This document shows, in pieces, positions 30,746 through 64,000 of a stretch of DNA of 64,000 bases. This stretch comes from Candidatus Anstonellales archaeon (GTDB lineage: Archaea; Micrarchaeota; Micrarchaeia; Anstonellales; J096), in the NCBI GenBank assembly GCA_038896535.1, contig JAWACY010000001.1, positions 355,111 to 419,110 of the forward strand, in the 5' to 3' direction. Both the position numbers and the translations under genes were made by a program. Positions within the stretch are counted from its first letter, which is position 1; each line of letters opens with the position of its first letter. Below the pieces are notes generated by a model. That model was not told the origin of the DNA, searched no databases, and worked only from the letters and a program-made list of their open reading frames with translations.

Positions 30746-30833
30746 TGATGTTGTGATTTAATTGTGACGTAATCATAAATTATAAATATAAAAACGGCAT
30801 ATAAATAATTAAAAACTCTTACTTGAAAATACA
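30746..30833 (+). repeat. Trailer/promoter cassette of the dispersed repeat family (copy 2, without gene)
   Basis: 5' half matches 24286 onward; 30787-30833 matches 33923-33969 at 46 of 47 nt. Confidence 0.88.
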
Positions 30834-30896
30834 TGTAAGGGGCAATAATGTAAAATAATAAAGGAAAAACGGAAATTTTGGGAATATACATTCTTA

Positions 30897-30970
30897 GGGC
30901 TCTTAGCTCAGACTGGTAGAGCGCTCCCTTGGCATGGGAGAGGCCGGGGGTTCAAATCCCCCAGAGTCCA
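30897..30970 (+). tRNA. tRNA-Ala (anticodon GGC)
   Basis: Acceptor GGGCTCT/AGAGTCC+A with G3:U70, anticodon arm CTCCC-TTGGCAT-GGGAG, GTTCAAATC. Confidence 0.96.
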
Positions 30971-31019
30971 CTAAAAACAAAGCTTGCATTTTTAAACACT
31001 TTTAATAAATATTAAATAC

Positions 31020-32054
31020 ATGTATTTATTGAAATTTTTTAAGACAAGAGAAAAGAAAAAAATATATTCAGATTTTGTATCAAATATAGCAAAAAAGCAC
31101 GGATTAAAATTACAAAATACGGATATAAAGAGAATTGCAAATGCCTTAATTATGTTTGATGATGACAAAGAGATGCTCAAGCAAGTATTGAAAACTATTG
31201 ATATGTTTCTTAAAAGCAAAAAAAGGCAAGCATTAATGTTTTCAATAGATATAATAAAAAGTCCATTATTCTTAGAATTAAAAAAACAAAGGTCAATGTA
31301 TTTATATAATTATATAGAATCTCTTGCTTCAATTAAAGAAGCGCATAATATGACAAATGAGAGTATTTTGGCAATATTATCAAATGAAAGCATTATCTCA
31401 GTTATAAGAGATATTAATAATACAAGTGCTTGTATTGCTATGTTTGAATATTTTATAAATACCTATTATAATGTAAAAAGTATTGATAAACTAGAAGAGA
31501 GAGTTAGGGGGATAAATAGATATAAAATTGGTATTATTAAATTATATGCTGATTTAGTCAAAAGCCATAGATTTAAAGATTTTTCATTTGCAATCCTTGG
31601 GCACGATGAAAATAAAATGAAATTCATTTATAGCCAGTTAGCAAATAATGAAGTATATAAGTTCATAGAATACTTAATTAATATTGATGAAGAAAAGGGA
31701 GCAGAGATATTAAAAGATTTTTATACGCTTATTTACAAGACAACAAATAATGAAAGCATTTATCTATATTCAAATGATCTTGTTAGTTGTTTAAAATGCT
31801 ATAGAGATATAAACATTATTGCTATAATATTAAAAGAGCTTATATCTGCATACGATGTTCATTTTAGATTTAATTCAAGTCCAGCAACGTTGTTAAAAGC
31901 CAGTATAAAAAGGCTTATTGAAGAAAAGAATATTAAAAAAATAAGCCATATTGCTGAGCAGAGAGATGGAAATGAAACATCTTATGCTATTGCCAATACA
32001 TATATTGATATAAAAACTGAAATAAAAAATGTTATATTGGGTAATGATATATAA
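31020..32054 (+). CDS. Hypothetical alpha-helical protein
   Basis: 344-aa I/K/N/Y-rich ORF; no motif recognised. Confidence 0.65.
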   Translation: MYLLKFFKTREKKKIYSDFVSNIAKKHGLKLQNTDIKRIANALIMFDDDKEMLKQVLKTIDMFLKSKKRQALMFSIDIIKSPLFLELKKQRSMYLYNYIESLASIKEAHNMTNESILAILSNESIISVIRDINNTSACIAMFEYFINTYYNVKSIDKLEERVRGINRYKIGIIKLYADLVKSHRFKDFSFAILGHDENKMKFIYSQLANNEVYKFIEYLINIDEEKGAEILKDFYTLIYKTTNNESIYLYSNDLVSCLKCYRDINIIAIILKELISAYDVHFRFNSSPATLLKASIKRLIEEKNIKKISHIAEQRDGNETSYAIANTYIDIKTEIKNVILGNDI

Positions 32055-32079
32055 TAGGAATAAGAAAAGAGGCAGTATA

Positions 32080-32979
32080 ATGAATGCAAAAACATGCGAT
32101 CACTGTAATAATGAAAGCATTGTGCATTTAGCTTATGCAAATAGAAACCTTTGCCAGCAGCACTTTTTTAATTTAATAGAAAAAAGGTTTTCTTTTTGTT
32201 TAAGACAAGAGGGAATGAAACCAAAGCAAAGAGTTGCTGTTGCTTTAAGCGGGGGGAAAGATTCAACAACATTGCTTTATTTATTAAATAAATTAAAAAG
32301 CAAAATACCTATGGACATTTTTGCAATAACAATTGATGAAGGCATTGCAGGATATAGGCCAAAAAGCATAGAAAAAGCAGCGATAATGTGTAAAAAACTT
32401 GGTATTGAGCATCATATAGTAAAGTTCAGTTCAGAAGTTGGCAAATCACTTGATGAAATAATGGAAGATAAAGATGATGAGCCTGCTTGTAGCTATTGCG
32501 GTGTATTCAGGAGATACCTTCTTAATAAAGCAGCTAAAGAGCTTAATGCTGATTTGATTGCTGTTGGTCATAATTTAGATGATACCGCACAGACGATATT
32601 TATGAATTTATTGAGAAACGAACCATCGCGGATTTTGAGATTTTTTAAGCCAATAATAGAACCAGAGGATTTTGTTAGAAGAATAAAGCCTTTGATGTAT
32701 ATTCCAGAAAAGGAGATAGCTATATATGCAATATTGAAAGGGCTTGAGTTTGATGATGGGGAGTGCCCATATGCGATGAGGAGTATAAGATATTACATAA
32801 GAGATATGATAAATAAACTTGAAGACAAAAAACCTGGGGCAAAGTTTCAGATAGTTAAAAGCATGCTTTCATTATTATATGAAAAAGAACAGAATAATGA
32901 GATAAAGAAATGTAAAGTATGCAAAATGCCAACAAATAGCGAAACTTGCATGTTCTGTCATTTAAAGAGTATTATTTAA
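32080..32979 (+). CDS. tRNA 2-thiolation protein, TtuA/Ncs6 (TIGR00269-like) family
   Basis: N-terminal CxxC..CxxH, PP-loop SGGKDS, CSYCGVFRR, GHNLDD, ECPYA, C-terminal CxxC..CxxC. Confidence 0.92.
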   Translation: MNAKTCDHCNNESIVHLAYANRNLCQQHFFNLIEKRFSFCLRQEGMKPKQRVAVALSGGKDSTTLLYLLNKLKSKIPMDIFAITIDEGIAGYRPKSIEKAAIMCKKLGIEHHIVKFSSEVGKSLDEIMEDKDDEPACSYCGVFRRYLLNKAAKELNADLIAVGHNLDDTAQTIFMNLLRNEPSRILRFFKPIIEPEDFVRRIKPLMYIPEKEIAIYAILKGLEFDDGECPYAMRSIRYYIRDMINKLEDKKPGAKFQIVKSMLSLLYEKEQNNEIKKCKVCKMPTNSETCMFCHLKSII

Positions 32980-33007
32980 AAAATCTTTTAGCAGTTTTTT
33001 ATTCATT

Positions 33008-33080
33008 GCTCCGGTCGTCTAGTGGTCAAGGATACTGGCCTTTCACGCCAGAGACCCGGGTTCGAATCCCGGCCGGAGCA
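33008..33080 (+). tRNA. tRNA-Glu (anticodon TTC)
   Basis: Acceptor GCTCCGG/CCGGAGC+A, anticodon arm CTGGC-CTTTCAC-GCCAG, GTTCGAATC. Confidence 0.96.
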
Positions 33081-33082
33081 TA

Positions 33083-33676
33083 TTATTTGCCTAAAACTTT
33101 TATCCCATTATCACTTGCCACAATGACATTTCCATCTTTGAATGTACAGTATTCAAATATTGACTCGATATTATTGCTTATTGTTTTTATTCTCCAGCTT
33201 TTGTTAAAGTCTACCTGCTTCCAAAATAGAGCATCAAGTTCAAAAAATTTTATATCCATTTTCTCATCTGCAGGATGAAAAACAAATACCTTTAATTTGG
33301 GTGCCCTATCAAGCTTATTCGCCATCTCAAGTTCTTTTTCATCAATAATGCCATTTATTATATAACCATTTGCAAGCATTACGCTAAAAGTGCCTGGCAT
33401 TGGAAATGCTTTTATTTGTTCACTGCTATTTATTGTTTTTTTGCTTTCATTATTTTGTTCTTTTACAAGAATATATATTGGACAATTTATCATATCTTGA
33501 AAATGTTGTTCTTTTTCCTGTACTTTTTTGTATTCATGAAATTCTAAATTCTCATTTATCCTAGATACCAAAGGCTCAAAATGTATAAATATAGGCATCA
33601 AAGCCGGCAAAATAAAAGTTTTAACAAATTTTTCTTTTTTCATCCCCATTCCCCAATAAAATAATTTTATAAGCAT
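33083..33676 (-). CDS. Hypothetical protein with N-terminal hydrophobic segment
   Basis: 197-aa ORF convergent on tRNA-Glu. Confidence 0.6.
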   Translation of the reverse strand: MLIKLFYWGMGMKKEKFVKTFILPALMPIFIHFEPLVSRINENLEFHEYKKVQEKEQHFQDMINCPIYILVKEQNNESKKTINSSEQIKAFPMPGTFSVMLANGYIINGIIDEKELEMANKLDRAPKLKVFVFHPADEKMDIKFFELDALFWKQVDFNKSWRIKTISNNIESIFEYCTFKDGNVIVASDNGIKVLGK

Positions 33677-33922
33677 TTAAAAATATTTATGTATTAATAA
33701 TGAATGTTAAAAATGATTTAAAAATGATAGTTAGTTATAATAGTTAGTTTGTATTAATAAGACATAAGTTGTTATCCTGTCCAAATAATTGCCAATAATC
33801 TTTTCAAATAAGATATAAATGATCTGGAAGATGAAGGTTTATTTAAGATTTAAGCATTTCTGACAGCAGCCAATTATTAAATAATTACAATGAATAGAAA
33901 CTGATGAAAAGAAAGTAAAAAT

Positions 33923-33969
33923 TATAAAAACAGCATATAAATAATTAAAAACTCTTACTTGAAAATACA
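33923..33969 (+). promoter_or_regulatory. Repeated promoter cassette (A-rich BRE-like plus TATAAATA) of the repeat-family gene
   Basis: TATAAATA about 30 nt before the ATG at 33973; near-identical copy at 30787-30833. Confidence 0.7.
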
Positions 33970-33972
33970 CAT

Positions 33973-34704
33973 ATGAGCCAACAAAAACAGAATACTGAAG
34001 AACAAACAAGACCGAAGAAAGTTAGAGTATGGCAACGACTAATAAAAGCAACAAAAGAAATAAAAGAAAGGTTAAGATTAAGAAGAGCAGAAATTATAAT
34101 AAAACAAAACAAAGATAAAATACCAAGGGAAATACAAGCCAAATTAATAGGGACACAAAACGAAGAAGAGAAAAACACATTAAAGATAATAGTTGCTAAT
34201 ATTTTGACAAAAATTAATAATGATTATACAAGAGAAGAGGCATTCGAAGCTCTTAACTCCATCTTACAAAACCCCAATTTCAAATCAGAATGGCTAACCG
34301 CAGAATTAGGGGAAAAAATCTCATCAATAGCAAATACAATAATAAAAAATACACCAGAACAATCAACAAGATGGGCATTTAAAGCTCTTAATTCCCTCTT
34401 ACAAAACCCCAATTTCACCCCCAAATTTATACCACTAATTGAAATAATGATAAAAGGTAAAAAAGGCCCAGAAATTCAAAAAACCTTAGAAAAGTTCAAT
34501 GAAATTATAAAAGAAGAAAAATCAATAGTATTATTACAAGATCTAGCCAATAAAGATGAAAAGATAATAAATGAAGCTGTTGCAATTATGCTTAACCCTG
34601 TTTTCTTTAATAATCTTCCTGATAAAGAGGAATTAATAGAAATAATAAAAGCAATTAAAAAATGTGATGCAAAATATATTGAGGAAATTTTCTCTTCTTT
34701 GTGA
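33973..34704 (+). CDS. Multicopy-family protein with 45-aa helical (HEAT-like) repeats
   Basis: AFEALNSILQNPNF and AFKALNSLLQNPNF 45 aa apart; paralogous DNA at 24011-24288 and 63773-64000. Confidence 0.8.
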   Translation: MSQQKQNTEEQTRPKKVRVWQRLIKATKEIKERLRLRRAEIIIKQNKDKIPREIQAKLIGTQNEEEKNTLKIIVANILTKINNDYTREEAFEALNSILQNPNFKSEWLTAELGEKISSIANTIIKNTPEQSTRWAFKALNSLLQNPNFTPKFIPLIEIMIKGKKGPEIQKTLEKFNEIIKEEKSIVLLQDLANKDEKIINEAVAIMLNPVFFNNLPDKEELIEIIKAIKKCDAKYIEEIFSSL

Positions 34705-34822
34705 TTCTGAATTTTAATTTACCCATTACACATTATTACACATTTAATGTCTTAGAATTTAGCTTGCATTATGGCTTGCATTAAATGATAAGTATTAATA
34801 ATAGTTTTACCACATTAAATAA

Positions 34823-35434
34823 ATGGAATCATTAAAGGCCATGGTTGAATATTTAAAAGATGCTGGCTTTTTAACCAAGCCAGATGTTGAGCTAGCCTTT
34901 TTATCTGTTGATAGAGCCTTTTTTGTCCCTGATCAATACAAAGATTATGCTTATGCTGATATAGCAATCCCAATAAAAGAGAATGTAACAATATCCGCCC
35001 CTTCTGTAATAGCCAGAACAATAGAGCTAAGCGAGATAAAAATTGGGAGCAATGTATTGGAGATAGGCACTGGCTCTGGCTATAGCACTGCTTTAATAAA
35101 ACACATAATAAAAGATGGCTTGCTTTATTCTGTTGAAATAGATAGCTTGGCATATGAATATGCTAAAAGAAAATTGGAAAAACTTGGCCTTGCTGATGAA
35201 ATAAAGCTATTCAATGCAGATGGAAAAAATATATTTTTTAAAGAAAGCATGTTTGATGCAATTATATTGCATGCCTCATTCAATAGAATATATGAAAATT
35301 GGAAAAGGCAGTTAAAAGAGCATGCTTGCATTGTTGGGCCTTATGAAAAAGAACCTTTTTACCAATTTCTTGTTAAATATAAAGATGGAAATCTTATATT
35401 TGACATTCCTGTTTTATATGTGCCATTAATATAG
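34823..35434 (+). CDS. pcm: Protein-L-isoaspartate O-methyltransferase
   Basis: VDRAFFVP, AYAD, TISAP, VLEIGTGSGY SAM-binding motif. Confidence 0.9.
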   Translation: MESLKAMVEYLKDAGFLTKPDVELAFLSVDRAFFVPDQYKDYAYADIAIPIKENVTISAPSVIARTIELSEIKIGSNVLEIGTGSGYSTALIKHIIKDGLLYSVEIDSLAYEYAKRKLEKLGLADEIKLFNADGKNIFFKESMFDAIILHASFNRIYENWKRQLKEHACIVGPYEKEPFYQFLVKYKDGNLIFDIPVLYVPLI

Positions 35435-35496
35435 TGCTATAAAGTCATCGCTATTCATTTGGTATGATTTTTAAATTTTACTTCATTTATTTATAT

Positions 35497-36402
35497 ATGT
35501 TAATGTGGTTTAACAATAAACTTATAGATGAAAAAGATTTTTCTATACATCCTTTAAGCCATAGCCTGCATTATGGTGATGCTGCATTCGAAGGCTTGAG
35601 GGCTTATAATTTGGGTAATAAAAAAACTGGGATTTTTAGAATAAGAGAACATGCCAACAGGCTTGTTTACAGCAGTTCTGTATTGATGGGGAAAAAAGTG
35701 CTTACAGTTGAGGAAGTAGAGAAGGGCATCATAGAAACAATAAGGGGGAATAAGATAAGTGAAGCTTATATAAGGCCAATATTTTTTCTTGGAAATGGGA
35801 CAATTGGTATAAACAATCTTGATAAAAACCAGAGGTTTTTTGCTGTTATGGCCTTGCCTTTTCCTCCATTCCTCGATAAAAATAAAGCGATAAGGGTTTT
35901 GATATCAAGTTATAGAAAAACGCCTAGCATATGCCAGCCAGCAAATGCAAAGATATCTGCTAATTATGTTAACAGCATCCTAGCAAGCAGAGAAGCAAGA
36001 ATTTCTGGTTATGATGAAGCGCTTTTATTAAATATACATAATAGAATAGCGGAGGGCCCTGGAGAGAATATATTCATAGTAAAAAATGAGAAACTATTTA
36101 CCCCACCATTAGATGAAGATTTATTAGAAGGCATAACAAGGGATAGCATAATTAAATTGGCAGAGCATATGGGCATTGAGGTTATAGAAAAACCTATAAG
36201 CATTGCTGAATTATTGAATGCAGATGAAGCATTTTTTACTGGAACTGCTGCTGAAGTTGTTGGCATAGGAGAAGTTTCTGGTTATAAAATAGGGGACGGG
36301 AATATTGGGGGCATAACAAAAAAATTGCAATCATTATATGAGAAAGCAACAAAAGGAAAAATAAAGGCATTTAGACATTGGGTAAAAGAAGTTAAGCTTT
36401 AG
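35497..36402 (+). CDS. ilvE: Branched-chain amino acid aminotransferase
   Basis: LHYGDAAFEGLRAY, AKISANYVNS, GYDEALLL, EGPGENIF, LEGITR, FFTGTAAEV. Confidence 0.95.
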   Translation: MLMWFNNKLIDEKDFSIHPLSHSLHYGDAAFEGLRAYNLGNKKTGIFRIREHANRLVYSSSVLMGKKVLTVEEVEKGIIETIRGNKISEAYIRPIFFLGNGTIGINNLDKNQRFFAVMALPFPPFLDKNKAIRVLISSYRKTPSICQPANAKISANYVNSILASREARISGYDEALLLNIHNRIAEGPGENIFIVKNEKLFTPPLDEDLLEGITRDSIIKLAEHMGIEVIEKPISIAELLNADEAFFTGTAAEVVGIGEVSGYKIGDGNIGGITKKLQSLYEKATKGKIKAFRHWVKEVKL

Positions 36403-38207: not shown

Positions 38208-38249
38208 AAATTATTGTTGAAAAACCCTTTTAAATACTTACAATAAATA

Positions 38250-40343: not shown

Positions 40344-41486
40344 ATGGAGGCTGTTGCAGAGGGCGATAAAAGCTCGAATATCGATGGCCCGCCTTTTGCT
40401 TTAGTTAGAAAAATTAGCGAAAGTTCTGCTGGGCCTTTAAATTTAAATTCAGAAAACAGAGGGTTTGCTGTCAATATAATTAATGCTAATGAAAATGCTG
40501 ATAGGGCATTAAGTAGCAAACAAAATATTAAAAGAATTTTTCTAAATGCTGATCCTTTAACTGATGAACTTGATTTTGATAGTCCTGATAAAGATGTTCC
40601 TGATAAAGATGTTGATGAAGGAGATGGGGAAGATAATGATAATGAAGAGCCCCCAGTTATTTTAGATGAAGAATACTTAGCTGAATTATTAGAAGAGCTA
40701 TTCTTATCTGCATTTTGTGGAGAAGATGATGCTGAAATTGATGGAGTTGATGATAAATATGAGGGGGAAGATGAATTTAAAGATGCAGAAGATAGCAAAG
40801 AAAATGAAATTGAAACATTGAATGGGGGAGAAGAAAATGAAGGAGAGGGATTAACCCATAGTTCAGAAGAAGTTGATGAGGGAGAAAATGTGGACAATGA
40901 AGAATTTGATGAAGGAGAAAATGAAGAGGAAGAAATTAATAGTGTTGAAACAAATACTGAAGAGGGCTTGGATGAAAAAGATGAAACAAGCATCGAAATT
41001 AATGATGGAGAAAGCGAAGTTGATGAAGATGATAAAGATAGCATAGAAAATGAAGTAATTAGAGATTCTGAAGAAAAAATTGAAGAAGAAATTGAAGAAG
41101 ATGGATTAGGTAATACTGATGCTGAGAACGATGAAGGAAAAAATGAAGAAGGGGAAGATGAAAAAATAGAAGATGAAAATGTTGAAGAAGATAATGCTAG
41201 CATTGAGGGAGTTGATGATAAATATGAGGGAGAAGATGAATTTAAAGATGCAGAAGATAGCAAAGAAAATGAAATTGAAACATTGAATGAGGGAGAAGAA
41301 AATGAAGGAGAGGGATTAACCCATAGTTCAGAAGAAGTTGATGAGGGAGAAAATGATAATGAATTTGATAATGAATTATTTGATATTAGCAATAACGAAA
41401 ATGAAATTGAATTTGATTTAACAAGTAATGAGCAAGTTGAAGATCAAGGAATTGATTCACATTTTGAAGATGACTTATCTGATTAA
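40344..41486 (+). CDS. Extremely acidic, probably disordered protein with an internal duplication
   Basis: 380 aa dominated by D/E/N/G; GGAGG upstream; GAA/GAT codon bias consistent with a real gene. Confidence 0.75.
   Translation: MEAVAEGDKSSNIDGPPFALVRKISESSAGPLNLNSENRGFAVNIINANENADRALSSKQNIKRIFLNADPLTDELDFDSPDKDVPDKDVDEGDGEDNDNEEPPVILDEEYLAELLEELFLSAFCGEDDAEIDGVDDKYEGEDEFKDAEDSKENEIETLNGGEENEGEGLTHSSEEVDEGENVDNEEFDEGENEEEEINSVETNTEEGLDEKDETSIEINDGESEVDEDDKDSIENEVIRDSEEKIEEEIEEDGLGNTDAENDEGKNEEGEDEKIEDENVEEDNASIEGVDDKYEGEDEFKDAEDSKENEIETLNEGEENEGEGLTHSSEEVDEGENDNEFDNELFDISNNENEIEFDLTSNEQVEDQGIDSHFEDDLSD
40743..41355 (+). repeat. 148-bp in-frame direct repeat (40743-40890 and 41208-41355)
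   Basis: Near-identical copies 465 bp apart encoding GVDDKYEGEDEFKDAEDSKENEIETLN.GEENEGEGLTHSSEEVDEGEN. Confidence 0.92.
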
Positions 41487-42590: not shown

Positions 42591-43700
42591 TTATCCAACA
42601 GCCAAGTAAAATATTTCTGGCCAGTAGTAGGATGTTAGATTTTCGTTTTCTTTTTCATCCAGCTCTTTTGTGATTAATTTTGCTTTTTCATAAGAATCCA
42701 TTAGCGTTGCGTACATTATTTCTCTTGCTTGTTCTTTTGCTTTTTCATTTACATAAAGCAGGTTTAAAAATGTCTTTAATGTATTAGACATGTGCAATAT
42801 AATATTTAACTTATTATTTTGCATGATATCAATGCTGGAAAGATTTGCAACTAATTTCTTCTCTCTAGAATAAACAATTTCATCAAGACCGAACCAAGAA
42901 TAGCTATTAAGGCAGGAATAAAATGAGGCAAAGCATATCTGCTTGATAAATTCTTCATTCAACCCATCATTTAAAATCTGAAAATTAACTTTTGGATTAA
43001 AAACAACATTTATATATTTCCTGCAGTCCTCATCAAAATCAACTCTTTTGCCTTTATGCATAAAAAATGACAGGTTAAAAAGGAATAAATTATTATTTTC
43101 AGCAATGCGTTTATTTAAACCTATTAATTGATCAGCAACTATAGAATCTTGTTCAAATGACTCTGCTAAATATTTAATAAGCTTTGCGAAATATACTGGA
43201 AAATTAGAATAATCATAAAAAGCACTCTCAAAGAATGCCCACAAATTAAAATCTTTCTCTTGAAACATTGACTCAAAATGTAAATATTTTAGCTTTGGCG
43301 TTAATAAGCAGGAATAAATACCATAATTTGAGTATGTCAAAATAAGCTCGCTATTTTCAATTGCAATTTGCTTGAAGTTTTTTAAGTATAACAATGTATT
43401 TTTCCCTTCTTCATCGTTGTTTCCTTTAAAAATGATCCTTAAAACTGGATTCATATGAACATCAAATGTTAAATATAGATCGCTAAATTCTGGGAATTCT
43501 ATCAATCTTAGCATTTCTATATCTTTATCTAAAAATTTATATTCTTTCTCTATCTCATTAAGGTTCATAGCAACATAAAATAATTGTTGCCTATTAAATC
43601 TACTTTTAATTATGCTCTTTTGCTGCTTTATTTTTTCTTGTATTGGTTTTATTGCTTGCCTGTAAGAAATAAAATCCTTTATTCCGTTTATTTGTTGCAT
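42591..43700 (-). CDS. Hypothetical protein
   Basis: 369-aa ORF divergent from cdc6; no motif recognised. Confidence 0.65.
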   Translation of the reverse strand: MQQINGIKDFISYRQAIKPIQEKIKQQKSIIKSRFNRQQLFYVAMNLNEIEKEYKFLDKDIEMLRLIEFPEFSDLYLTFDVHMNPVLRIIFKGNNDEEGKNTLLYLKNFKQIAIENSELILTYSNYGIYSCLLTPKLKYLHFESMFQEKDFNLWAFFESAFYDYSNFPVYFAKLIKYLAESFEQDSIVADQLIGLNKRIAENNNLFLFNLSFFMHKGKRVDFDEDCRKYINVVFNPKVNFQILNDGLNEEFIKQICFASFYSCLNSYSWFGLDEIVYSREKKLVANLSSIDIMQNNKLNIILHMSNTLKTFLNLLYVNEKAKEQAREIMYATLMDSYEKAKLITKELDEKENENLTSYYWPEIFYLAVG

Positions 43701-43838: not shown

Positions 43839-45032
43839 ATGGTTTCTAATCTTGAAGAACTATTAAACAAAAAAAGCATCATAAAAGACAGGAATGCCTT
43901 ATCCCCTCATTTTATCCCTGATAATATACTTTATAGAGATAGCGAAATAGAGGCAATAGCAAGAACAATAGCCCCTGTATTAAAGCAAGAAAAACCAAAA
44001 AATTTATTCATATATGGCAAAACAGGGACAGGAAAAACAACATGTGCTAAATATGTAATAAAAAAAGTAAGTGAGGTAAAAGAACGCTATAACGTTAATG
44101 CAGAATTTCATTATCTAAATTGCAGGGTTTATGATTCAAGATATAAAATAATGCAGAATTTCTTGAAAAACTATTATCCAGAAATAGAAAAATCTGGTTT
44201 TGGTCTTCCATATTTTTATGAGAAGCTTATCGATGCACTATCACAAAATAAATATATTGTATTAGTACTTGATGAAATAGACATAGTTAAAGACCTTGAT
44301 GAACTTATATATACACTTATAAGAATAAATGATGAAGCAAAAAATGGTAGCTTATCAATTGTTGGCATATCAAACAAGCTAAGCTTCAAAACAAAACTTG
44401 ATCCAAGGAGTAGGAGCAGCCTTTATGAGACAGAAATTATATTTTCACCATATGATGCTATACAATTGAGGGGCATATTAGAGCAGAGAATAAAGATTGC
44501 CTTTGAGCCAAATACAATAGCAGGCAATGCGATAAGCTTAATATCCGCTATAACTGCTCAAGAAAATGGGGATGCAAGATATGCATTAAAACTTTTACAT
44601 ACTGCTGCTGAAGTTGCAGAGCAAGAAGGCAGCAATATAGTAGAGGAAAGGCATGTCGAAAATGCAAGAAGGCTCGTTGAATATGACATAGCTGCTGAAG
44701 CGATAAAAACATTGCCATTACACCATCAACTTATTCTTTATGCGCTGGCAAAGATGACGCTTAACAATAAAAATAGGGCATTAGTTGATGAAGATGGGGG
44801 CTATTTCTTTTCTGGCGATCTTTATGATTTCTATACAAAAATGTGCAGGCAGTTTTATAAAAAACCAAAATCCGCAAGGAGTTATAGAGATTACATAAAT
44901 GAACTTGAAAGCCTTGGCCTTGTATCGACTGTTTTTACAAGCAAAGGCATAAGAGGGCATACAAGATTGATAAAGATAGGCCATAATGCAGAAGACATTG
45001 TCAATATAATAAATAAAAGATTTGACTTGTAA
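43839..45032 (+). CDS. cdc6: Orc1/Cdc6 replication initiator
   Basis: YGKTGTGKT, YLNC, VLDEID, LDPRSRSSL, FSPYDAIQL, GDARYAL, C-terminal wHTH. Confidence 0.95.
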   Translation: MVSNLEELLNKKSIIKDRNALSPHFIPDNILYRDSEIEAIARTIAPVLKQEKPKNLFIYGKTGTGKTTCAKYVIKKVSEVKERYNVNAEFHYLNCRVYDSRYKIMQNFLKNYYPEIEKSGFGLPYFYEKLIDALSQNKYIVLVLDEIDIVKDLDELIYTLIRINDEAKNGSLSIVGISNKLSFKTKLDPRSRSSLYETEIIFSPYDAIQLRGILEQRIKIAFEPNTIAGNAISLISAITAQENGDARYALKLLHTAAEVAEQEGSNIVEERHVENARRLVEYDIAAEAIKTLPLHHQLILYALAKMTLNNKNRALVDEDGGYFFSGDLYDFYTKMCRQFYKKPKSARSYRDYINELESLGLVSTVFTSKGIRGHTRLIKIGHNAEDIVNIINKRFDL

Positions 45033-45106: not shown

Positions 45107-45121
45107 CGAAAGGTTTAAATA
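45107..45121 (+). promoter_or_regulatory. BRE plus TATA box upstream of the structured RNA candidate
   Basis: CGAAAGG-TTTAAATA; similar form upstream of genes at 5578 and 40344; predicted start about 45144. Confidence 0.6.
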
Positions 45122-45144
45122 TTTTACGCTACATATTTATTTAG

Positions 45145-45264
45145 GACCAAACTGAAAGGCTGAAAAAAGAACTGGTAACAGTGTTCTGCCCTTTTCAAGG
45201 GAAATCCTTGAAATAGGGATCTTGTTTCCCTTCGGGGAATCAAGAAGTTAAGCCTTTCGGGGTC
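45145..45264 (+). ncRNA. Candidate structured non-coding RNA (four-way junction), family not recognised
   Basis: GC-rich island; closing helix GACC-AAA-CTGAAAGGCT / AGCCTTTCGG-GGTC with a G-U pair; three inner hairpins with GUAA, GAAA(U) and C(UUCG)G loops; T-tract after. Confidence 0.7.
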
Positions 45265-45569
45265 AAACTCCTCTTTAAATTTTTTATTTAAATTTTTTAT
45301 AATCTTAGATGAGCAACTTATTGACAAAGTTCTTGATATCTTGATAAAAAGATTATAGAAAAAATATTATACATATATAAAAATATGAGATATGAAAATA
45401 TTATAAAAATGCAGGGTAAAATATATTGGAGTTAGCAATAGGTAATATTTTATATTATCAACAAACTGAAAATAGAATGAGAGAAAGAACGATACAAAAA
45501 AGATATTACTACAATATAAGATAAGCTAATAAAGTAAAAATTTTTTAACTGTTGGATATAAATTAAATT

Positions 45570-55359: not shown

Positions 55360-55367
55360 AATAATAA

Positions 55368-56180: not shown

Positions 56181-56217
56181 TTTTGCCCTCCAATAATTTA
56201 TATATGAACAGAATTAT

Positions 56218-56706
56218 TTAAAATTTATACTTTTTTATTATAGCCATTATCTTATCAACATCTTTTTTCTTATAACTTGGCTTAAATCTGATCTTTTTCT
56301 TTGCTCTTGTTTTTATCCAAAAATAGTCAAGATGCAATGCTATTAAGTTTTGCTCTATTTTTTCCTTATTATATTTTCTTGCTTTCATTCTTTTATATAA
56401 CAACTCTGGTTTTGTATCTATGATTATAGCAATATCAAACTTAATATTAATATCTGGCAGAAGATGGCTTTCCACCAATATTTTATTTTCTTTTTTTTCA
56501 ATTTCTTTTATATATTCTTTTAGCATCTTGCCTACCTTTTCATTGTCAATAATGTACGCTTTTAATTTCCTATCATAACCTATTATTAAATTTCTTCTCT
56601 CCTTTATCCACTCATTCAGATGTATAACAAATATGCCTTTTCTTTTCAGCTTTTTTGCCAAAAATGTCTTACCAGAGCAGACAGGGCCTGTTAAAGCAAT
56701 AAGCAT
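56218..56706 (-). CDS. Adenylate kinase, AK6/Fap7-like
   Basis: IALTGPVCSGKT, LVESH, LYKRMKARKY..EKIEQN. Confidence 0.8.
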   Translation of the reverse strand: MLIALTGPVCSGKTFLAKKLKRKGIFVIHLNEWIKERRNLIIGYDRKLKAYIIDNEKVGKMLKEYIKEIEKKENKILVESHLLPDINIKFDIAIIIDTKPELLYKRMKARKYNKEKIEQNLIALHLDYFWIKTRAKKKIRFKPSYKKKDVDKIMAIIKKYKF

Positions 56707-56715
56707 TATATCTCC

Positions 56716-57609: not shown

Positions 57610-57640
57610 ATTGTAGAAAATTGTAGAAAATAAAATTTAA

Positions 57641-57715
57641 TAGTGGGGGGTGGATTTGAACCACCGTTCTCCGGGTTATGAGCCCGGCGGGCACTCCAAG
57701 CTACCCTACCCCACT
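57641..57715 (-). tRNA. Initiator tRNA-Met (anticodon CAT)
   Basis: Reverse complement AGTGGGG.../CCCCACT+A with A1:U72; anticodon arm CCGGG-CTCATAA-CCCGG with three consecutive G-C pairs. Confidence 0.95.
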
Positions 57716-57741
57716 TAAAAATATTAATGTAACAAAACATT

Positions 57742-59190
57742 TTAATATTGCTTTGCTATATACGCAAAGACTTTTGCTTCCCTGCCGCATATTATACACT
57801 TTTCATTATGAACTGGGCTTTCTTTTATATCTGCTCTTTCTCCTCTTACTTCTGCTTGAAGTTTTTCTTTTATTTCTTTATAGCATTCTTTTCCATCATT
57901 GCCTATTGAACAAAAAGGCACTCTTACAATGCCTTTTTCTAAATGCTTTTCTATCTCATCAAATGTTTTTGCTTCTCTTATATTTTTATTTAGAGCATCA
58001 ATATTTTCCTTTATTATGTGTTCAAAATGCTTTCTATATTCTTCAAAAACAACGCTTATATTATCTATGCTTGTTTTTCTTTTTTCATTGCTTTTACGCA
58101 ATACATATGTTATTGTATTTGATTCCATTTCTTTTTGGCCCAATTCAATCCTTATAGGAACGCCCTTTAATTCCCATTTATTAAACTTAAAACCAGGGCT
58201 TTCATCTTCTGTTAAATCAGCATATGCCCTATATCCAAGTGCTTTTAATTTATGCTCAATGCTTTTTGCATAATGAAAAATGCTTTCTTTGTTTTCTTTA
58301 ACAAATATTGGCACAATAACAATCTGTATTGGGCTTAAATCAAGTGGGAAAAAAAGGCCTTTTTCATCACCATGCCAGCTTATCATAGCAGCCAAAAATC
58401 TTTGCATACCTGGACCACAAGTTGTTTGCCATACATATTTTTTCTTTCCATCTACATCGAGGAACATTATATTAAACGGCTTTGAAAAATTATTGCCTAG
58501 CAAATGTGTTGTTAATATTTGCAAAACTCTAGAATCAGGCATTAATGTATCAGCAGCATAAGTTTCTTCTGCTCCAGCAAATTTATCCCATTCTGGCCTT
58601 CTGAAAAATATGAATGGAATACCAAAAATATGCTTGACAACTCTTTCTGCTATTTCTATATCTTGCTTTATCTGGTTTCTTGCATTTTTCTCATTGTTGA
58701 ATGCACAATGTGTTTCTATCCACAATATCTCTCTCCCCCTTATTAAAGGTCTTGTTGCCTTTGTTTCATACCTCCATACTGTCCCGCTTTGGTATACTTT
58801 TAACGGCAGGTCTTTTGCACCATTTATCCATAACGAGAACATTGGATATATTGCTGTCTCACTAGTTGGTCTCAAAACAACAATTTCCTCCTTTGCAAGT
58901 TCATTTAAGCCTGCTCTTGTTATCCAAAAAACCTCGCCTTCAAAACCTTTTATGTGCTCTTCCTCTTTTTTAAAATATTCTATTGGTATAACTGCCGGAA
59001 AATGAACCGGCATATGCCCATTTTCTTCAAGCACTTTTTCATACATGCTATACATTTTTTTCAGAACAAACATTCCCCAAGGCCTGTAAACAATAAAGCC
59101 TTTGACATTATAACGTAAATCTATTATTTCTGCTTCTTTTATTATTTCATTATACCATTCAGAAAAATTGTTCTTATTAAGCTTAGCCAT
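57742..59190 (-). CDS. proS: Proline--tRNA ligase, archaeal/eukaryotic type
   Basis: FSEWY, LRPTSET, WRYETKATRPLIRGRE, PGFKFNKWELKGVPIRIE, terminal AKQY. Confidence 0.96.
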   Translation of the reverse strand: MAKLNKNNFSEWYNEIIKEAEIIDLRYNVKGFIVYRPWGMFVLKKMYSMYEKVLEENGHMPVHFPAVIPIEYFKKEEEHIKGFEGEVFWITRAGLNELAKEEIVVLRPTSETAIYPMFSLWINGAKDLPLKVYQSGTVWRYETKATRPLIRGREILWIETHCAFNNEKNARNQIKQDIEIAERVVKHIFGIPFIFFRRPEWDKFAGAEETYAADTLMPDSRVLQILTTHLLGNNFSKPFNIMFLDVDGKKKYVWQTTCGPGMQRFLAAMISWHGDEKGLFFPLDLSPIQIVIVPIFVKENKESIFHYAKSIEHKLKALGYRAYADLTEDESPGFKFNKWELKGVPIRIELGQKEMESNTITYVLRKSNEKRKTSIDNISVVFEEYRKHFEHIIKENIDALNKNIREAKTFDEIEKHLEKGIVRVPFCSIGNDGKECYKEIKEKLQAEVRGERADIKESPVHNEKCIICGREAKVFAYIAKQY

Positions 59191-59236
59191 AGAAAAAATT
59201 CACAAAACCTTTTTTAAAATAATGCATAATTTATTT

Positions 59237-59746
59237 ATGTCATCTGCATTTGGCCAGGCATTCGCACAAGCTTTTGCGCAGGCTTTTGCTTTTTTAATTC
59301 TTGCTGCATGCTTTGCATTTATTATTATTTTAATAGGCATAATTAATTTCCTTGTTTATGGCCTTTCTAAATTTCCGAAAAAGGCGATAATATCATTGAT
59401 AATAGCGTTCTTATCTTTCATTATAAGCATAATATTAATTGATTATAAAGCAGTCGCTTTTATTATTCCCTATGTGGTTCTTTTTGCATTTTATTTTGGC
59501 GTAAATTTTAAAGAAAAAACGTCTCCATTATTTGAGCGCATAGCAAAAGAAACAGGGAAAATGTCTTTAATTGGAGGAGCCATAATGTTAATCATATTAA
59601 TATTATTGTTTATATTCTCTCTACCAAGCATTTTATCTCTTGACATAAACGTAATTGCCCCATTCATAACATTTTTCTTAATATCATTATTTAATATATA
59701 TTTCGGGCTTAAGGCCATTGACAAAAATTTATTTTCTGCTTTTTAA
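59237..59746 (+). CDS. Hypothetical integral membrane protein
   Basis: About five hydrophobic helices; N-terminal AFxQ repeat. Confidence 0.65.
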   Translation: MSSAFGQAFAQAFAQAFAFLILAACFAFIIILIGIINFLVYGLSKFPKKAIISLIIAFLSFIISIILIDYKAVAFIIPYVVLFAFYFGVNFKEKTSPLFERIAKETGKMSLIGGAIMLIILILLFIFSLPSILSLDINVIAPFITFFLISLFNIYFGLKAIDKNLFSAF

Positions 59747-59838
59747 TTTTGCCTCTTACTTAAGCAATATTTATAAAATTTCACAAAATAACGAAAAAAG
59801 CAACATTTTTAAATAGTTCCATAAATATAATAATATCA

Positions 59839-60507
59839 ATGATTGCTGGCACTTTTAATGCTTTTAATAGTAAAACGTGCAATAATAAAACATGCATGGC
59901 AAAGGCAAATGGTAGTAAAAAAAGGCATAGCAAAGGCAATGCACAGAAAATTGCAGAAAAGAAAACGAAAAATAAGGAATTAGAAAAATTTAATGTAATT
60001 ATTGATACTTGCTATATTTTAGAACAGCTAAAGGCTGGAAGGAGCATAAAAGATGTGCTATTTTCTTTAGCAGAAGGCAAAGAAGTAAATAATGTTATTA
60101 TACCAAAGCAAGTATTAGATGAGCTATGTAATATTTTATCATCAAGGGCCGATGTAAAGAATGAAATAATTAAAGCTGGCTTAACCTTATCTAAATTAAA
60201 AGCTGACATTGAAGAATTTAGATATTGCACATTACATGAAAGGGTCAAAATTATAGATGTAATTATAGATAATGAAGAAATTACATATTATAATAAGTTA
60301 TTGGCTTCGCAATCTATTAAAGGCAATAGAAGGATAGGTTTAGGAGAAGCTGCAATATTCAATATTATAACTAAACATTGCTCTTTAGATTGCTCTTTAG
60401 ATTTTTTTAATGACTTTGGCGGAGAAAATATAAAAATATTAGTATTATCCCTGGATTCAGATGTTTCAACATTATTGAAATTATTGAAAAATATTAATGG
60501 GGTGTAA
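59839..60507 (+). CDS. PIN-domain protein (putative ribonuclease)
   Basis: VIIDTCYIL, VIIPKQVLDEL, IGLGEAAI, VLSLDSD: the acidic PIN active-site pattern. Confidence 0.75.
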   Translation: MIAGTFNAFNSKTCNNKTCMAKANGSKKRHSKGNAQKIAEKKTKNKELEKFNVIIDTCYILEQLKAGRSIKDVLFSLAEGKEVNNVIIPKQVLDELCNILSSRADVKNEIIKAGLTLSKLKADIEEFRYCTLHERVKIIDVIIDNEEITYYNKLLASQSIKGNRRIGLGEAAIFNIITKHCSLDCSLDFFNDFGGENIKILVLSLDSDVSTLLKLLKNINGV

Positions 60508-61177
60508 AAGAATGAATCAAGTATTTAAATATAAAAAACCACTTAGGCTGCCTATTGGTGATAAGCAATATGGAAAGAGATATTTAAGAGAAGATGAGGC
60601 AGAGAGATTATTTTCGTTCCGTTTAATAGCTGAAGAAAAATTTGATGGCACTATGCATGAGATAGATACACAAGAATTTAAATTTTATGTTGAGGATATG
60701 AAATACAGAAAGACAATTCCTTATAGAATACCAGCAAGATATGCTGTTTTTGATATTCTTGATAAGAGGGCAACTATCTTTTTAAGAAGAGATGACAAAG
60801 AAAGACTTGTAATTGATATAATAAAGGGCAGAATATGGGCATATAGACATTTAGCTGATAAGTTATTTATTGTTCCTTTAATAGAAGCAGGAAAGTTCTC
60901 AATTTCAGAAGTACCAAAGCTTGCTGATATGTGCTCTTATTATGGCCATGGCAAAAATGTGCCAATAGAAGGAATAGTTTTCAAAATTGATGCTGCTATT
61001 TCAATACTTGAATCATACCCATTTTCAGCAAAATATGTAAGGGCTGATTTCATAGATAAAATAAATAGTAGTGATAAAAAAATATCTGGGTTAAATGTTA
61101 TAAGCTCAAGCATACCAATGATATTATCTTATAAAAATCAATCAGCAAAGATTAAAAATCAAATAAGAGAGCCTTAA
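60497..61177 (+). CDS. ATP-dependent RNA ligase-like nucleotidyltransferase (Rnl2-like adenylation domain)
   Basis: Motif I EEKFDG, III FYVE, IIIa AVFDI, IV EGIVFK, V AKYVR; no OB domain. Confidence 0.8.
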   Translation: MGCKRMNQVFKYKKPLRLPIGDKQYGKRYLREDEAERLFSFRLIAEEKFDGTMHEIDTQEFKFYVEDMKYRKTIPYRIPARYAVFDILDKRATIFLRRDDKERLVIDIIKGRIWAYRHLADKLFIVPLIEAGKFSISEVPKLADMCSYYGHGKNVPIEGIVFKIDAAISILESYPFSAKYVRADFIDKINSSDKKISGLNVISSSIPMILSYKNQSAKIKNQIREP

Positions 61178-61198
61178 GGCTCTCTACAAAAAATCCAT

Positions 61199-61639
61199 TC
61201 AATAATCTTGGGGGAGACTGCTACCTTGCCAGTCTTTATTTATAAAGAAATAAGCTTTTCTTCCTGCAAAGCCTTTTTTTAAAACTCCAATTCTGCATAA
61301 ATTATTAAGCCTTGCAGAAGCAGCATTCCTTCCTTTGTAATTCAGCAATGCCTTTATCTCTTCTGCTGTTGCTTTGCCCTTTTGCTCTATTATATTAATA
61401 ATCTTTTCATCAACTTCTGATAAAAGATTTATTGGTTCATTACTTCCTGCTGTTTTTGTTTCTAATAATTCTATTTTTCTTATAAGTGTTTTCATAAGCC
61501 TATTATTATCTTCAACCTGCTTTGCCAATTCATATATTGCCAGAGCAAGTTCTATGCTCTTATCTACATTTTTTTGTTCTTTTAATTTCTGCTCAATCTT
61601 TTGCTCTTTATTTTCTTTATCAATAAAATCCTCTTCCAT
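61199..61639 (-). CDS. Coiled-coil plus winged-helix DNA-binding protein
   Basis: N-terminal heptads; LSEVDEKIINII..KGKATAEEI..LLNYKGRNAASARLNNL...GVLKK...GRKAYF. Confidence 0.75.
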   Translation of the reverse strand: MEEDFIDKENKEQKIEQKLKEQKNVDKSIELALAIYELAKQVEDNNRLMKTLIRKIELLETKTAGSNEPINLLSEVDEKIINIIEQKGKATAEEIKALLNYKGRNAASARLNNLCRIGVLKKGFAGRKAYFFINKDWQGSSLPQDY

Positions 61640-61648
61640 TTTTATCAT

Positions 61649-61703
61649 CAGAGTCATGATGTTCATGTGATATGTCATGACTCTGTCATGATTTTAGCAT
61701 GAT
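61649..61703. promoter_or_regulatory. Array of five CATG-core palindromic sites with an 11-bp inverted repeat; candidate operator
   Basis: CATG at 61655, 61664, 61676, 61687, 61698; CAGAGTCATGA (61649-59) / TCATGACTCTG (61675-85); lies between a TATA-like element and the wHTH start. Confidence 0.55.
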
Positions 61704-61752
61704 ATATTTTTAAATGTTACTGTTTTTTGTTTGCATTTTTAATTTCTTATGT

Positions 61753-61890
61753 TTAATCAGTGCTGACCTCTCTTGCTATTGCTGTTTTTTCCTTAAATAT
61801 AATTTTTGCTCCTGAATAAGGAAGGTTATATTCTTTTAAATTCTCAATTTCTGTTTGTTCTCCTATGGGCCATATTCTGTATTTTGGCAT
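61753..61890 (-). CDS. rpoP: DNA-directed RNA polymerase subunit Rpo12 (RpoP), cysteine-free; absent from ORF track
   Basis: MPKYRIWPIGEQTEIENLKEYNLPYSGAKIIFKEKTAIAREVSTD (45 aa), GAGGGAG upstream, directly after rpl37ae as in the conserved operon. Confidence 0.8.
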   Translation of the reverse strand: MPKYRIWPIGEQTEIENLKEYNLPYSGAKIIFKEKTAIAREVSTD

Positions 61891-61898
61891 ATTCTCCC

Positions 61899-62141
61899 TC
61901 ATATTTTATTATTCTTTATTTCAGCAAGCATTCTTTTTGCTGTTTCACCAGCTTCTGTTAGTGGCTTATAAGCCCCGCCAGCAACTTTTGTTTTGCATGA
62001 TTTGCATATAAATATTGCAAACCCGCTCCTCTTCAATTTTCTTTTTTCGCACTTTGGGCATATATAAAGTTTTTTTGCTGCTTCTTGCATTTCTTTATAA
62101 AGCTTCCTTATCTTTCTCCCATATTTTGGTGTTCTCAGCAT
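61899..62141 (-). CDS. rpl37ae: Ribosomal protein eL43 (L37Ae)
   Basis: KYGRKIRK, CPKC..CKSC zinc finger, AGGAY. Confidence 0.93.
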   Translation of the reverse strand: MLRTPKYGRKIRKLYKEMQEAAKKLYICPKCEKRKLKRSGFAIFICKSCKTKVAGGAYKPLTEAGETAKRMLAEIKNNKI

Positions 62142-62158
62142 TTTTCCACCCTAATCAA

Positions 62159-62959
62159 TTAATCAATCAAATATTTATTTAATTCTTTTGCATGTTTAAA
62201 AGCAAGATCAATAATATTTAGCACATCAGATTTTTTAAAACTGCCTGTTCCCCTTTTTTGCAATGAACAAACATAATTATTTGTTGTACTAACTATTAAT
62301 TGAGCATCGCTTGCTATATCCTCTTCATAGCTTGGGTCTAAAAGCAAGTAATCGTCAAGCTTGGAAAATGTATTGCTGACTGGCAAAGGATTTTTTAATG
62401 GCAATTTTCCAGCTATTTCATTTCTTATTATTTTTCCTTCTTCAACTTTTGGCAATCTGCAATGCTTTAATGCAAAAGAAGCTGCGAGCAGAGCAGGATC
62501 AAAAAGATTTCCTCCATAATCTATTACATATAAATCAATAAAAACGCCAAAAACCTTCCCCTCTTCTATAAAAAGCTTTTCCATATCAATGCATTCGCTG
62601 CTTCTTATAGCTCTATCAACAACTCTTGAAAATTCTATACTATTCTCATCAGGTGGGCCAGGCTCAAACTTTGCACTTGCTAAAGGCAAAAGTTCTGCAT
62701 TTGTTATTAAAGCCCCTCTGTTTGGCTCTTCTGGAAATGGTTCAACAACTTCAAGCTTTATGCCTGCAATAACCTGTGTTGAACCTATGCTTACTATTGC
62801 TGATCCTTCTGCATTGGGGATAACATTTGGTTTTGCTTCTATTTCTCTATATTCCATAAATGTTCTGCCGTCAAGCCTTTTTCCATGCTTGAGGAATTGC
62901 CCGAGAAATTCCTTTTTTTGCTTTGTTATTATCGACTGCTTACTCATTTTATCCCTCAT
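62159..62959 (-). CDS. rrp42: Exosome subunit Rrp42
   Basis: GKRLDGR, AEGSA, FEPGPPDENSIE, RVVDRAIR, DYGGNLFD. Confidence 0.95.
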   Translation of the reverse strand: MRDKMSKQSIITKQKKEFLGQFLKHGKRLDGRTFMEYREIEAKPNVIPNAEGSAIVSIGSTQVIAGIKLEVVEPFPEEPNRGALITNAELLPLASAKFEPGPPDENSIEFSRVVDRAIRSSECIDMEKLFIEEGKVFGVFIDLYVIDYGGNLFDPALLAASFALKHCRLPKVEEGKIIRNEIAGKLPLKNPLPVSNTFSKLDDYLLLDPSYEEDIASDAQLIVSTTNNYVCSLQKRGTGSFKKSDVLNIIDLAFKHAKELNKYLID

Positions 62960-63696
62960 AATTTTAATTTCTTCTCCATCTCTTTTGTATATGCCTCTTC
63001 TATAGCTTTTCTTTGTTCTTCAAAAAGTTTTTGTGCGCCTTGCCAGGTATAATCAAGGAGCTTTTCTATTTCATCTCTTTTAAGCAAGCCATCTGCTTGC
63101 AAAAGCACTATATCTCCATTCTTTGTATAACCAACTGGCATGTCTGCTTGGCCATAATTATCTTCCTCTTTTCCCAAATCAAGCACAAGCTGTCCATCAA
63201 CTTTGCCTGCTGATATGGCTGCTAAAGGCATTTTTACAGGAATACCGGCATTCATTAAAGCAAGACAAGCCGCTGTTAAAGAAGCTACTCTTGTTCCACC
63301 TTCTGCCTGTAATACTATAATATAAACATCTATTATAGTATTTGGAAATTTCTCTGTTAATGTTATATTTTCTAACGCTTCTCTTATCACTTTACTTATT
63401 TCTATGCTCCTTCTGTTTGGTCCCATCCTACCATGCTCTTCGAGACTTGCAAAAGTGCTCATGCTATAAATACATCTAAGGGTTGCTTTATGCATATCAG
63501 CAAGATGCTTTGGCAAAGCTTCTTTAGGCCCAAAAACACCTGCAAGTATTTTATTTTTTCCCCATTCTATATAAGCTGAGCCGTCAGCTTCTTCAAGAAC
63601 ACCTACCTTCATTGATATGTTACGCAACTGCAAATAGTCCCTTCCATCGATCCTTTTTCCATCAATTATTAATTTAATATCCTTTTTTACTCCCAT
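62956..63696 (-). CDS. rrp41: Exosome subunit Rrp41 (RNase PH family)
   Basis: RIDGR, ADGSAYIEWG, GPNRRSIEISK, QAEGGTR, EEDNYGQADMP. Confidence 0.95.
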   Translation of the reverse strand: MGVKKDIKLIIDGKRIDGRDYLQLRNISMKVGVLEEADGSAYIEWGKNKILAGVFGPKEALPKHLADMHKATLRCIYSMSTFASLEEHGRMGPNRRSIEISKVIREALENITLTEKFPNTIIDVYIIVLQAEGGTRVASLTAACLALMNAGIPVKMPLAAISAGKVDGQLVLDLGKEEDNYGQADMPVGYTKNGDIVLLQADGLLKRDEIEKLLDYTWQGAQKLFEEQRKAIEEAYTKEMEKKLKL

Positions 63697-63772
63697 TTTA
63701 TCTCTCTTTTTTAATTTCTTTTTTGCATTTATTCATAAATCTTTATACAAAGGTTTTTTAATTATTTATACA

Positions 63773-64000
63773 TCACAAAGAAGAGAAAATTTTCTCAATA
63801 TATTTTGCATCACATTCTTTAATTGCTTTTATTATTTCTATTAATTCCTCTTTATCAGGAAGATTATTAAAGAAAACATGGCTAAGCATAATTGCAACAG
63901 CTTCATTTATTATCTTTTCATCTTTATTGGCTAGATCTTGTAATAATACTATTGATTTTTCTTCTTTTATAATTTCATTGAACTTTTCTAAGGTTTTTTG
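63773..64000 (-). CDS. 3' end of a near-identical paralog of the 33973-34704 gene (continues beyond window)
   Basis: Reverse complement matches 34477-34704 at 224 of 228 nt. Confidence 0.88.
   Translation of the reverse strand, partial: QKTLEKFNEIIKEEKSIVLLQDLANKDEKIINEAVAIMLSHVFFNNLPDKEELIEIIKAIKECDAKYIEKIFSSL

Follow-up and report, generated by a model that had tools for sequence, protein, structure and literature searches.

The locus described here raises the question of how an archaeal exosome operon comes to lie in two pieces on opposite strands, 33 kb apart as assembled, and whether the DNA in between has been inverted. It was found in 64,000 nucleotides (nt) from a Candidatus Anstonellales archaeon (contig JAWACY010000001.1 of assembly GCA_038896535.1, positions 355,111 to 419,110), hereafter the window, which is the terminal 64 kb of contig C1 in a 752-kb genome of five contigs (C1-C5) that is 91% complete. 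This genome is denoted G000, its relatives G001, G002, G003 and so on, and the metagenome runs X1-X6. The archaeal exosome gene neighbourhood is described as conserved in the relevant passages of PMC2588523 and PMC2890523; G000 has the same genes, intact and with rrp41-rrp42-rpl37ae still linked, but, unlike the neighbourhood described there, rrp4 and rrp41 are apart, and the link of rpoP to pcc1/prefoldin, present in G001 and G003, is broken too. We found that the rrp4-rrp41 split is real and derived, with read support at the rrp4-side junction only. We consider, at a probability of about one half, that homology-driven recombination among dispersed members of a repeat-protein gene family, GF, produced it once and irreversibly, by a GF insertion, a crossover inversion of about 33 kb and a lock by slippage.

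Reality and ancestry of the rrp4-rrp41 split

The ancestral gene order was assessed in 148 genomes of the order with a completeness of at least 80%. The rrp4 gene was directly upstream of rrp41 in 142 of the 144 relatives having both genes, with a median gap of 67 nt, and the same arrangement had been found in a first sample (29/29 loci). The two exceptions look like assembly breaks rather than splits: in G137 the genes are adjacent across a contig break, and in G151 the rrp41 locus shares a 46-nt overlap, at 89%, with the end of the rrp4 contig. The latter was considered as a second split and rejected as a probable misjoin; at this place (L181:610-1506) rrp41 is joined to a gene that we take to be ThiI-like. 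A metagenome scan using rrp4 returned one distant locus, in which the operon was intact. The break in G000 is the only clear one among 145 genomes of the order, and relatives in which the genes are likewise unlinked were not seen, in agreement with the ancestral linkage assumed in the initial annotation of this DNA.

The public runs containing G000 sequence are hot-spring metagenomes; an RNA run, X7, shared 0.06 of the words and was left out of the comparison. Contigs from four runs were compared over positions 30000-31300; these runs stem from two studies, perhaps from one campaign, and X1 may be the source of the assembly. In 4/4 runs, one contig traversed the rrp4 stop and the adjoining TGATGT motif to 30821-30826 with 0 differences. 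No loose contig end pointing to the rrp41 side was present among the 24 listed of 34, and at TGATGT only the split junction was recorded in all four contig sets, which are of low depth (4-17) and drop rare variants. Pfam matches upheld the names given initially to SBDS, rrp4 (a KH-domain protein), rrp41 and rrp42 (two RNase PH genes), rpl37ae (L37ae) and cdc6, and rrp41 is an unbroken 246-amino acid (aa) frame. The placement of rpoP in the operon stood in part: the position fits, but the open reading frame (ORF) of 49 aa had no Pfam match, and the name rests on position.

The GF family at the broken ends

The initial annotation had placed members of one repeat family at both broken ends. This was borne out, since GF sequence lies 83 nt from the end of rrp4 and 59 nt upstream of rrp41, on opposite strands, and the shared motifs lie exactly where they had been placed: TGATGT at 30746-51 and 63770-75, a 16-mer at 30800-15 and 63755-70, and the intact junction at 24281. 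The 16-mer occurs four times in the 752-kb genome, each time inside a GF-family copy, and because of this it is not a chance match. The hexamer TGATGT has 465 genome occurrences and is uninformative by itself.

The repeat is the tail and probable promoter of a helical-repeat gene family of Micrarchaeota, with 8 copies or remnants in the genome. Two short genes are intact, one of 243 aa (e2) and one of 364 aa that runs from C3:932 to 63773 (e3 at its 3' end); a longer ORF with GF repeats lies on C2, and remnants were found at e0 and e1 (Table 1), C1:338087-338550, C1:324026-324110 and C5:4470-4905. A 32-nt GF-like match at 43393-43424, possibly due to chance, was excluded from this count. Four remnants have the order gene end, trailer, leader, and may be the leavings of a broken-up tandem array. 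The protein consists of repeats of roughly 45 residues and is matched by 53 representatives, and its named homologs come from Micrarchaeota. A single-sequence structure model was all-helical, with a predicted local distance difference test score (pLDDT) of 74.8. We found no Pfam family above cut-off, no Atlas match and no fold match at E 0.001 for GF, only weak HEAT/importin-like and designed-helix fold matches; a partial, weak PHROG match was judged to be chance. Among 40 relatives, GF matches were restricted to G003, G015 and G036, all of them weak. The trailer had no significant match in 5/5 relatives searched, and its pattern gave 0 matches in viral and genome contigs.

The GF leader carries the motif TTAAAAA 28 nt 5' of the ATG. 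Since TATA-like motifs in 162 upstream regions genome-wide peak at -40 to -26 relative to the ATG, where this motif falls, the leader is probably a promoter; the position of the peak also suggests that the mRNAs of G000 are mostly leaderless or have very short leaders. GF pieces evidently do enter operon junctions, judging from e0, because it occupies part of a 654-nt spacer whose flanking genes, T2SSF and pilin-like, are separated by 10 nt in both G001 and G002. The operon in question (23317-29150, minus strand) is of pilus type and contains a T2SSE ATPase, two T2SSF genes and, preceded by the inserted GF remnant, the gene that we presume to be pilin-like from its N-terminus. At C1:338087-338550, right after an 834-aa ORF ending at C1:337999, the leader of a GF remnant runs into the ATG of an unrelated gene, and this fusion looks like promoter capture. 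A circular intermediate, with a gene end joined to a gene start, was considered for GF and set aside: it had no supporting enzyme or fixed ends, and a tandem GF ancestry explains the remnants equally.

The annotated flip at TGATGT stood in part. It restores rrp4-rrp41 and rebuilds a junction like that of e0, but exact identity between the arms is limited to 6 and 16 bases, which are out of register. At the right end the two motifs have one base in common, at the left 48 nt separate them, and a single crossover in register therefore cannot involve both. The left copy begins at 30711 rather than at 30746 and stays collinear with two further copies through TGATGT (114/153 and 123/170 columns), so no break is visible there. 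Moreover, the flip leaves between rrp4 and rrp41 a 196-nt spacer with a repeat remnant (0 nt in G001, 70 nt in G002), so that an insertion must have preceded the inversion. Copy e1 joins a gene end of the e4/e5 type to a trailer of the e0 type, as a crossover at TGATGT would do, which is weak evidence for one. With 16 exact nt left, the split junction in 4/4 runs and no reverted end among the contigs listed, the flip looks historic, not reversible as had been proposed.

Table 1. Positions of the features around the split (window coordinates)
Feature	Position	Strand	Basis or remark
e0, degraded GF copy that keeps its whole trailer and leader	23984..24430	+	inside 654-nt spacer
SBDS	29169..29954	+	Pfam SBDS_N/II/C; ORF bounds, real start probably more internal
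rrp4, full length, upstream half of split operon	30038..30628	+	Pfam KH_6; full-length matches in 144/147 relatives
T-rich stutter of short duplications 3' of rrp4	30629..30710	+	sequence; possibly a terminator
e1, final GF codons, trailer and GF promoter/leader, left break	30711..30848	+	alignments; crossed by contigs of 4/4 runs
Block B: tRNA-Ala(GGC), 344-aa ORF, TtuA-like gene, tRNA-Glu, 197-aa ORF	30897..33676		flanked by direct GF copies e1/e2
GF leader, TATA-like TTAAAAA 28 nt 5' of ATG	33913..33972	+	37 nt identical to e1
e2, intact GF gene, 243 aa, all-helical repeat protein	33973..34704	+	no Pfam match; predicted structure
Left arm of 285-nt inverted repeat	34421..34705	+	4 mismatches; 34421-34594 perfect
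PCMT	34823..35434	+	G003 ortholog comes straight after ortholog of C3 coiled-coil gene
cdc6	43839..45032	+	Pfam; within both candidate inverted segments
rrp41-rrp42-rpl37ae-(rpoP by position), downstream half of split operon	61753..63696	-	
16-nt GF-leader remnant fused to e3 stop	63755..63770	-	59 nt upstream of rrp41
e3, 3' end of second intact GF gene, right inverted-repeat arm	63772..64000	-	C1 ends within; remainder C3:1-932

A single 3020-nt contig of run X1 covers block B. Two other features were recorded: a 380-aa acidic repeat protein with an internal 173-nt duplication (95%) at 40344-41486 on the plus strand, and, 3' of cdc6, a region of higher GC content that contains hairpin-like segments (45107-45289). 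Another family of dispersed repeats, whose period is 66 nt (22 codons), has at least 12 loci, among them C2:240144-240444, C4:1-114 and many sites on C1.

Orientation of the segment and the origin of the split

The two intact GF genes share their 3' 285 nt with 4 mismatches, of which 174 nt are perfect, and the arms are inverted; this repeat was not listed in the initial annotation. Within the window, the arms (34477-34705 and 63772-64000) are 98% identical, and the 4 mismatches in 285 nt compare with 20 in the 135 nt just upstream. Bases on either side of the perfect stretch tell the copies apart: 34420 is C in e2 and T in e3, and 34595 and 34598 are A and C against G and A. Contigs break inside the perfect stretch, C1 ending 118 nt in and C3 starting 121 nt in, and four other contig ends show the same pattern at 118-127 nt. 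We infer that C1 and C3 stop at an unresolved repeat and that the join of C1 through e2 may be arbitrary. The end of C1 and the start of C3 have 65 exact bases in common, and end overlaps together with repeat matches between contigs arrange C1-C3-C5-C2-C4 as one circle, which suggests that G000 is nearly closed and interrupted only at repeats.

Public assemblies, compared at the assembly level, join the halves of the 285-nt repeat both ways. In that of P0057, the C3-type 5' half is joined to the rrp41-side tail, which matches the assembled state, on a 9089-nt contig that also has gene 61199 and on which rrp42 and L37ae were not recorded. In that of P0056 (with P0059), the 5' half of e2 is joined to the rrp41-side tail and C-terminus, opposite to the assembled state, on a 3073-nt contig of the same size as the one carrying rrp42; that these are one contig is deduced from equal length only. 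P0055 stops within the repeat. Two of the three complete joins (P0001 of the window and P0057) fit the assembled state, and with a join of the P0056 type the two genes share a strand, rrp41 following rrp4 at a distance of 4.15 kb. The 174-nt perfect repeats that bound the inner 29 kb are joined both ways, which leaves the size and orientation of the annotated 33-kb inversion unproven: it is plausible that rrp4 and rrp41 are 33 kb apart and inverted, or 4 kb apart, and a live switch, if there is one, would involve the inner 29 kb. The annotated presence of cdc6 inside the segment is correct for either extent.

Synteny was compared over 1.01 Mb of G001, 0.90 Mb of G002 and 13 pieces of G003. Of 221 tight adjacencies common to G001 and G002, G000 keeps 181 and breaks 40, and rrp4/rrp41 is the only broken one with GF at both ends, for which the rough chance is 40 x (8/312)^2 = 0.03. 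At the TtuA/HMG-CoA synthase break, e2 is 933 nt away from one side. PCMT comes immediately after the C3 coiled-coil gene in G003, and TtuA adjoins HMG-CoA synthase or RFC in G001-G003, being nearer to both in the assembled state. A reversal search with seven blocks, four ancestral adjacencies and five adjacency sets showed that recovering all four takes 5 reversals as assembled and 4 once either single flip has been made; without the G003 adjacency, 3 remained after the 33-kb flip and 4 after the inner one. The 33-kb flip, as annotated, thus lies on a shortest path and cuts the distance by one in 5/5 adjacency sets, but each single flip restores one adjacency, no single reversal restores both flanking ones (3 reversals are needed), and with all four adjacencies counted the two routes tie. 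The adjacency of gene 61199 and Lon in G001 and G002 was considered as evidence against the 33-kb flip and dropped, the flip being still on a shortest path. GC skew settled nothing on the breakpoints: the raw cumulative curve tracks the coding strand, and once the coding bias was removed no 20-kb bin exceeded |z| 1.7, so skew cannot orient the segment or locate the origin.

Profile searches whose controls were recovered each time, aimed at ten families and not at every protein, found none of them in the 91%-complete G000: tyrosine recombinase (PF00589), serine recombinase (PF00239), reverse transcriptase (PF00078), TnpB (PF07282), IS110 (PF01548), Y1 (PF01797), DDE_1 (PF01609), rve (PF00665), IS240 (PF13610) and mutator (PF00872). 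Tyrosine recombinase was found in 0/12 relatives of the same family (f1), so no XerA-like dimer resolvase was found there or in G000, and a tyrosine recombinase was found in 5/8 genomes of other families. RadA is present in G000. The failure to match PF00078 speaks against a diversity-generating retroelement, and that of PF00589 and PF00239, with motifs out of register, against site-specific inversion. An insertion sequence or miniature inverted-repeat transposable element finds no counterpart in the seven transposase, TnpB and integrase-core families searched; at e0, the one copy analysed in this way, the longest direct match of the spacer was 7 nt and the longest inverted match 6 nt, and GF copies start and stop at differing points of the gene, trailer and leader. 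The split had been called element-mediated; as far as its sequence tells, the GF repeat is not a mobile element but a paralogous protein-gene family. A rearrangement between paralogs has inverted homology at both breakpoints (GF at the outer pair, the 285-nt repeat at the inner) and a known ancestral order in its favor.

In the reading that we favor, a GF tail-plus-promoter piece would have lodged between rrp4 and rrp41, as e0 did in the pilus-type operon, and rrp41-rrp42-rpl37ae would have gained their own promoter. A crossover with an oppositely oriented GF trailer about 33 kb off would then have inverted the segment, presumably through RadA or microhomology repair, and slippage would later have worn down the common trailer until 16 exact nt remained, which would have locked the split. 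Such slippage is plausible because perfect short tandem duplications (unit of at least 8 nt) in intergenic DNA of G000, for example at 30629-30710 and 34706-34800, number 73, against 2-4 in shuffles; per 10 kb, the values are 13.9 in G000, about 0.6 in shuffles, 1.6 in G001 and 7.0 in G002, and this excess suggests frequent slippage or a repair defect. Through the inversion, the two GF genes, formerly direct repeats, would also have become inverted ones, so that short reads cannot orient the inner 29 kb and RadA could flip it. The order of events, the enzyme and the use of the promoter are what this scheme would add to the observations.

Several points weigh against it. Read support covers the left junction and none comes from the right one, and homology shows no break at TGATGT. 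Neither the other break of the operon, 3' of rpoP, nor 38 of the 40 broken adjacencies has GF (within 1 kb for the latter), and GF is therefore not a general driver. The relatives compared are distant, with ortholog identity averaging 48%. The inner flip at the 285-nt repeat ties on all four adjacencies and restores the coiled-coil>PCMT order of G003 exactly, a join seen in another assembly (P0056 with P0059). In Thermococcus kodakarensis, according to the part of PMC5495485 that concerns it, homologous recombination was detected between identical stretches of at least 500 bp, which exceed any repeat at this locus.

A tentative alternative, on balance unlikely, takes the true order to be rrp4 - e1 - block B - GF243 - rrp41 on one strand, with rrp4 and rrp41 4.15 kb apart. 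Block B would have moved in between GF remnants, either as a block or through two overlapping inversions, and the apparent inversion would reflect an assembler's pairing of the wrong GF halves over the 174-nt perfect repeat. The ends of C1 and C3 inside the perfect repeat, the pattern shared by four other contig ends, the P0056 join with its contig of the size of that of rrp42, and the restored G003 adjacency all argue for it, and flip misassembly at long inverted repeats is documented (PMC7111523, in the part that treats such cases); yet two of the three complete joins fit the assembled state, the shared contigs are deduced from equal lengths only, TtuA is nearer to HMG-CoA synthase and RFC as assembled, and without the G003 adjacency this order is no nearer to the relatives than the assembled state (4 vs. 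4 reversals). The same discordant joins would also arise if the 29 kb between the GF tails, with cdc6 inside, flipped in the living population through RadA, exchanging four C-terminal residues between the two GF proteins and changing which GF transcript runs into rrp41 or PCMT and which GF promoter feeds the exosome core and rpl37ae, with GF spreading into operons as portable tail-plus-promoter cassettes without a transposase. We regard this as improbable: the drop in mismatches within the 285 nt suggests recent exchange, RadA is present, and inversions in Thermococcus nautili join paralogs sharing at least 104 bp (PMC5495485, as far as its relevant part goes), but those needed an integrase, no tyrosine recombinase was found in G000 or 12 family relatives, and an unresolved repeat yields discordant joins anyway, which are known here at the assembly level only.

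A mobile element or site-specific recombinase that flips the 33-kb segment at TGATGT and is able to rebuild the operon would make sense of the shared motifs, which are real, and of the rebuilt e0-like junction. It is very unlikely, given 465 occurrences of TGATGT, motifs out of register, ten enzyme families not found in the 91%-complete genome, GF copies with no common ends, terminal repeats or target duplication of at least 8 nt, and 24 listed loose ends (of 34), none of which points to rrp41. That the whole split is a misassembly of adjacent rrp4 and rrp41 is hardly credible; the window does end at a contig end in a repeat, but the contigs of four runs that cross from the rrp4 stop to the trailer refute it at the left junction, and a second assembly records GF and rrp42 on one short contig.

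Relation to known systems and meaning

The class of event is already known as paralog-mediated rearrangement. In T. nautili, large inversions occur between inverted paralog pairs, nested or sequential, with identity of at least 104 bp being sufficient and the tyrosine integrase of pTN3 driving them (Cossu et al. 2017, PMC5495485, in the sections on these inversions). As there, paralogous genes stand at the inversion ends and direct repeats become inverted after an earlier inversion; unlike there, searches of G000 and 12 family relatives found no such integrase, the paralogs are lineage-specific repeat-protein genes, and one break cuts a conserved operon. In Wolbachia, ANK repeat-protein genes lie at rearrangement breakpoints, and transposons, up to 18% of the genome, drive rearrangement (10.1101/2023.10.25.563763, in its relevant part). 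G000 resembles it in having a small, host-dependent genome with helical-repeat protein genes at breakpoints, and differs in that the search for transposase families found none and that just 2/40 broken adjacencies are marked by GF. The flip misassemblies at long perfect inverted repeats treated by Chen et al. 2020 (PMC7111523), with GC skew as the test in the account given there, match this locus in that a perfect inverted repeat exceeding a short read flanks the segment and contigs break inside it; they would explain the orientation of the inner 29 kb only, whereas the rrp4/rrp41 split is read-supported, and skew is flat here. Literature searches outside supplements turned up no paper that reports, for Micrarchaeota, a split exosome operon or an inversion through repeats.

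For the organism, the split indicates that, after capture of a promoter, co-transcription of the exosome cap with its core is dispensable. It also points to a route of genome shuffling in a lineage in which tyrosine recombinase was found in 0/13 genomes, with decaying repeat-protein gene copies offering places for crossover and supplying promoters. This locus also warns that an 'inversion' close to the end of a contig may hinge on an unphased repeat. If it is true that both orientations of the inner segment are live, they would constitute a testable chromosomal switch in a DPANN archaeon.

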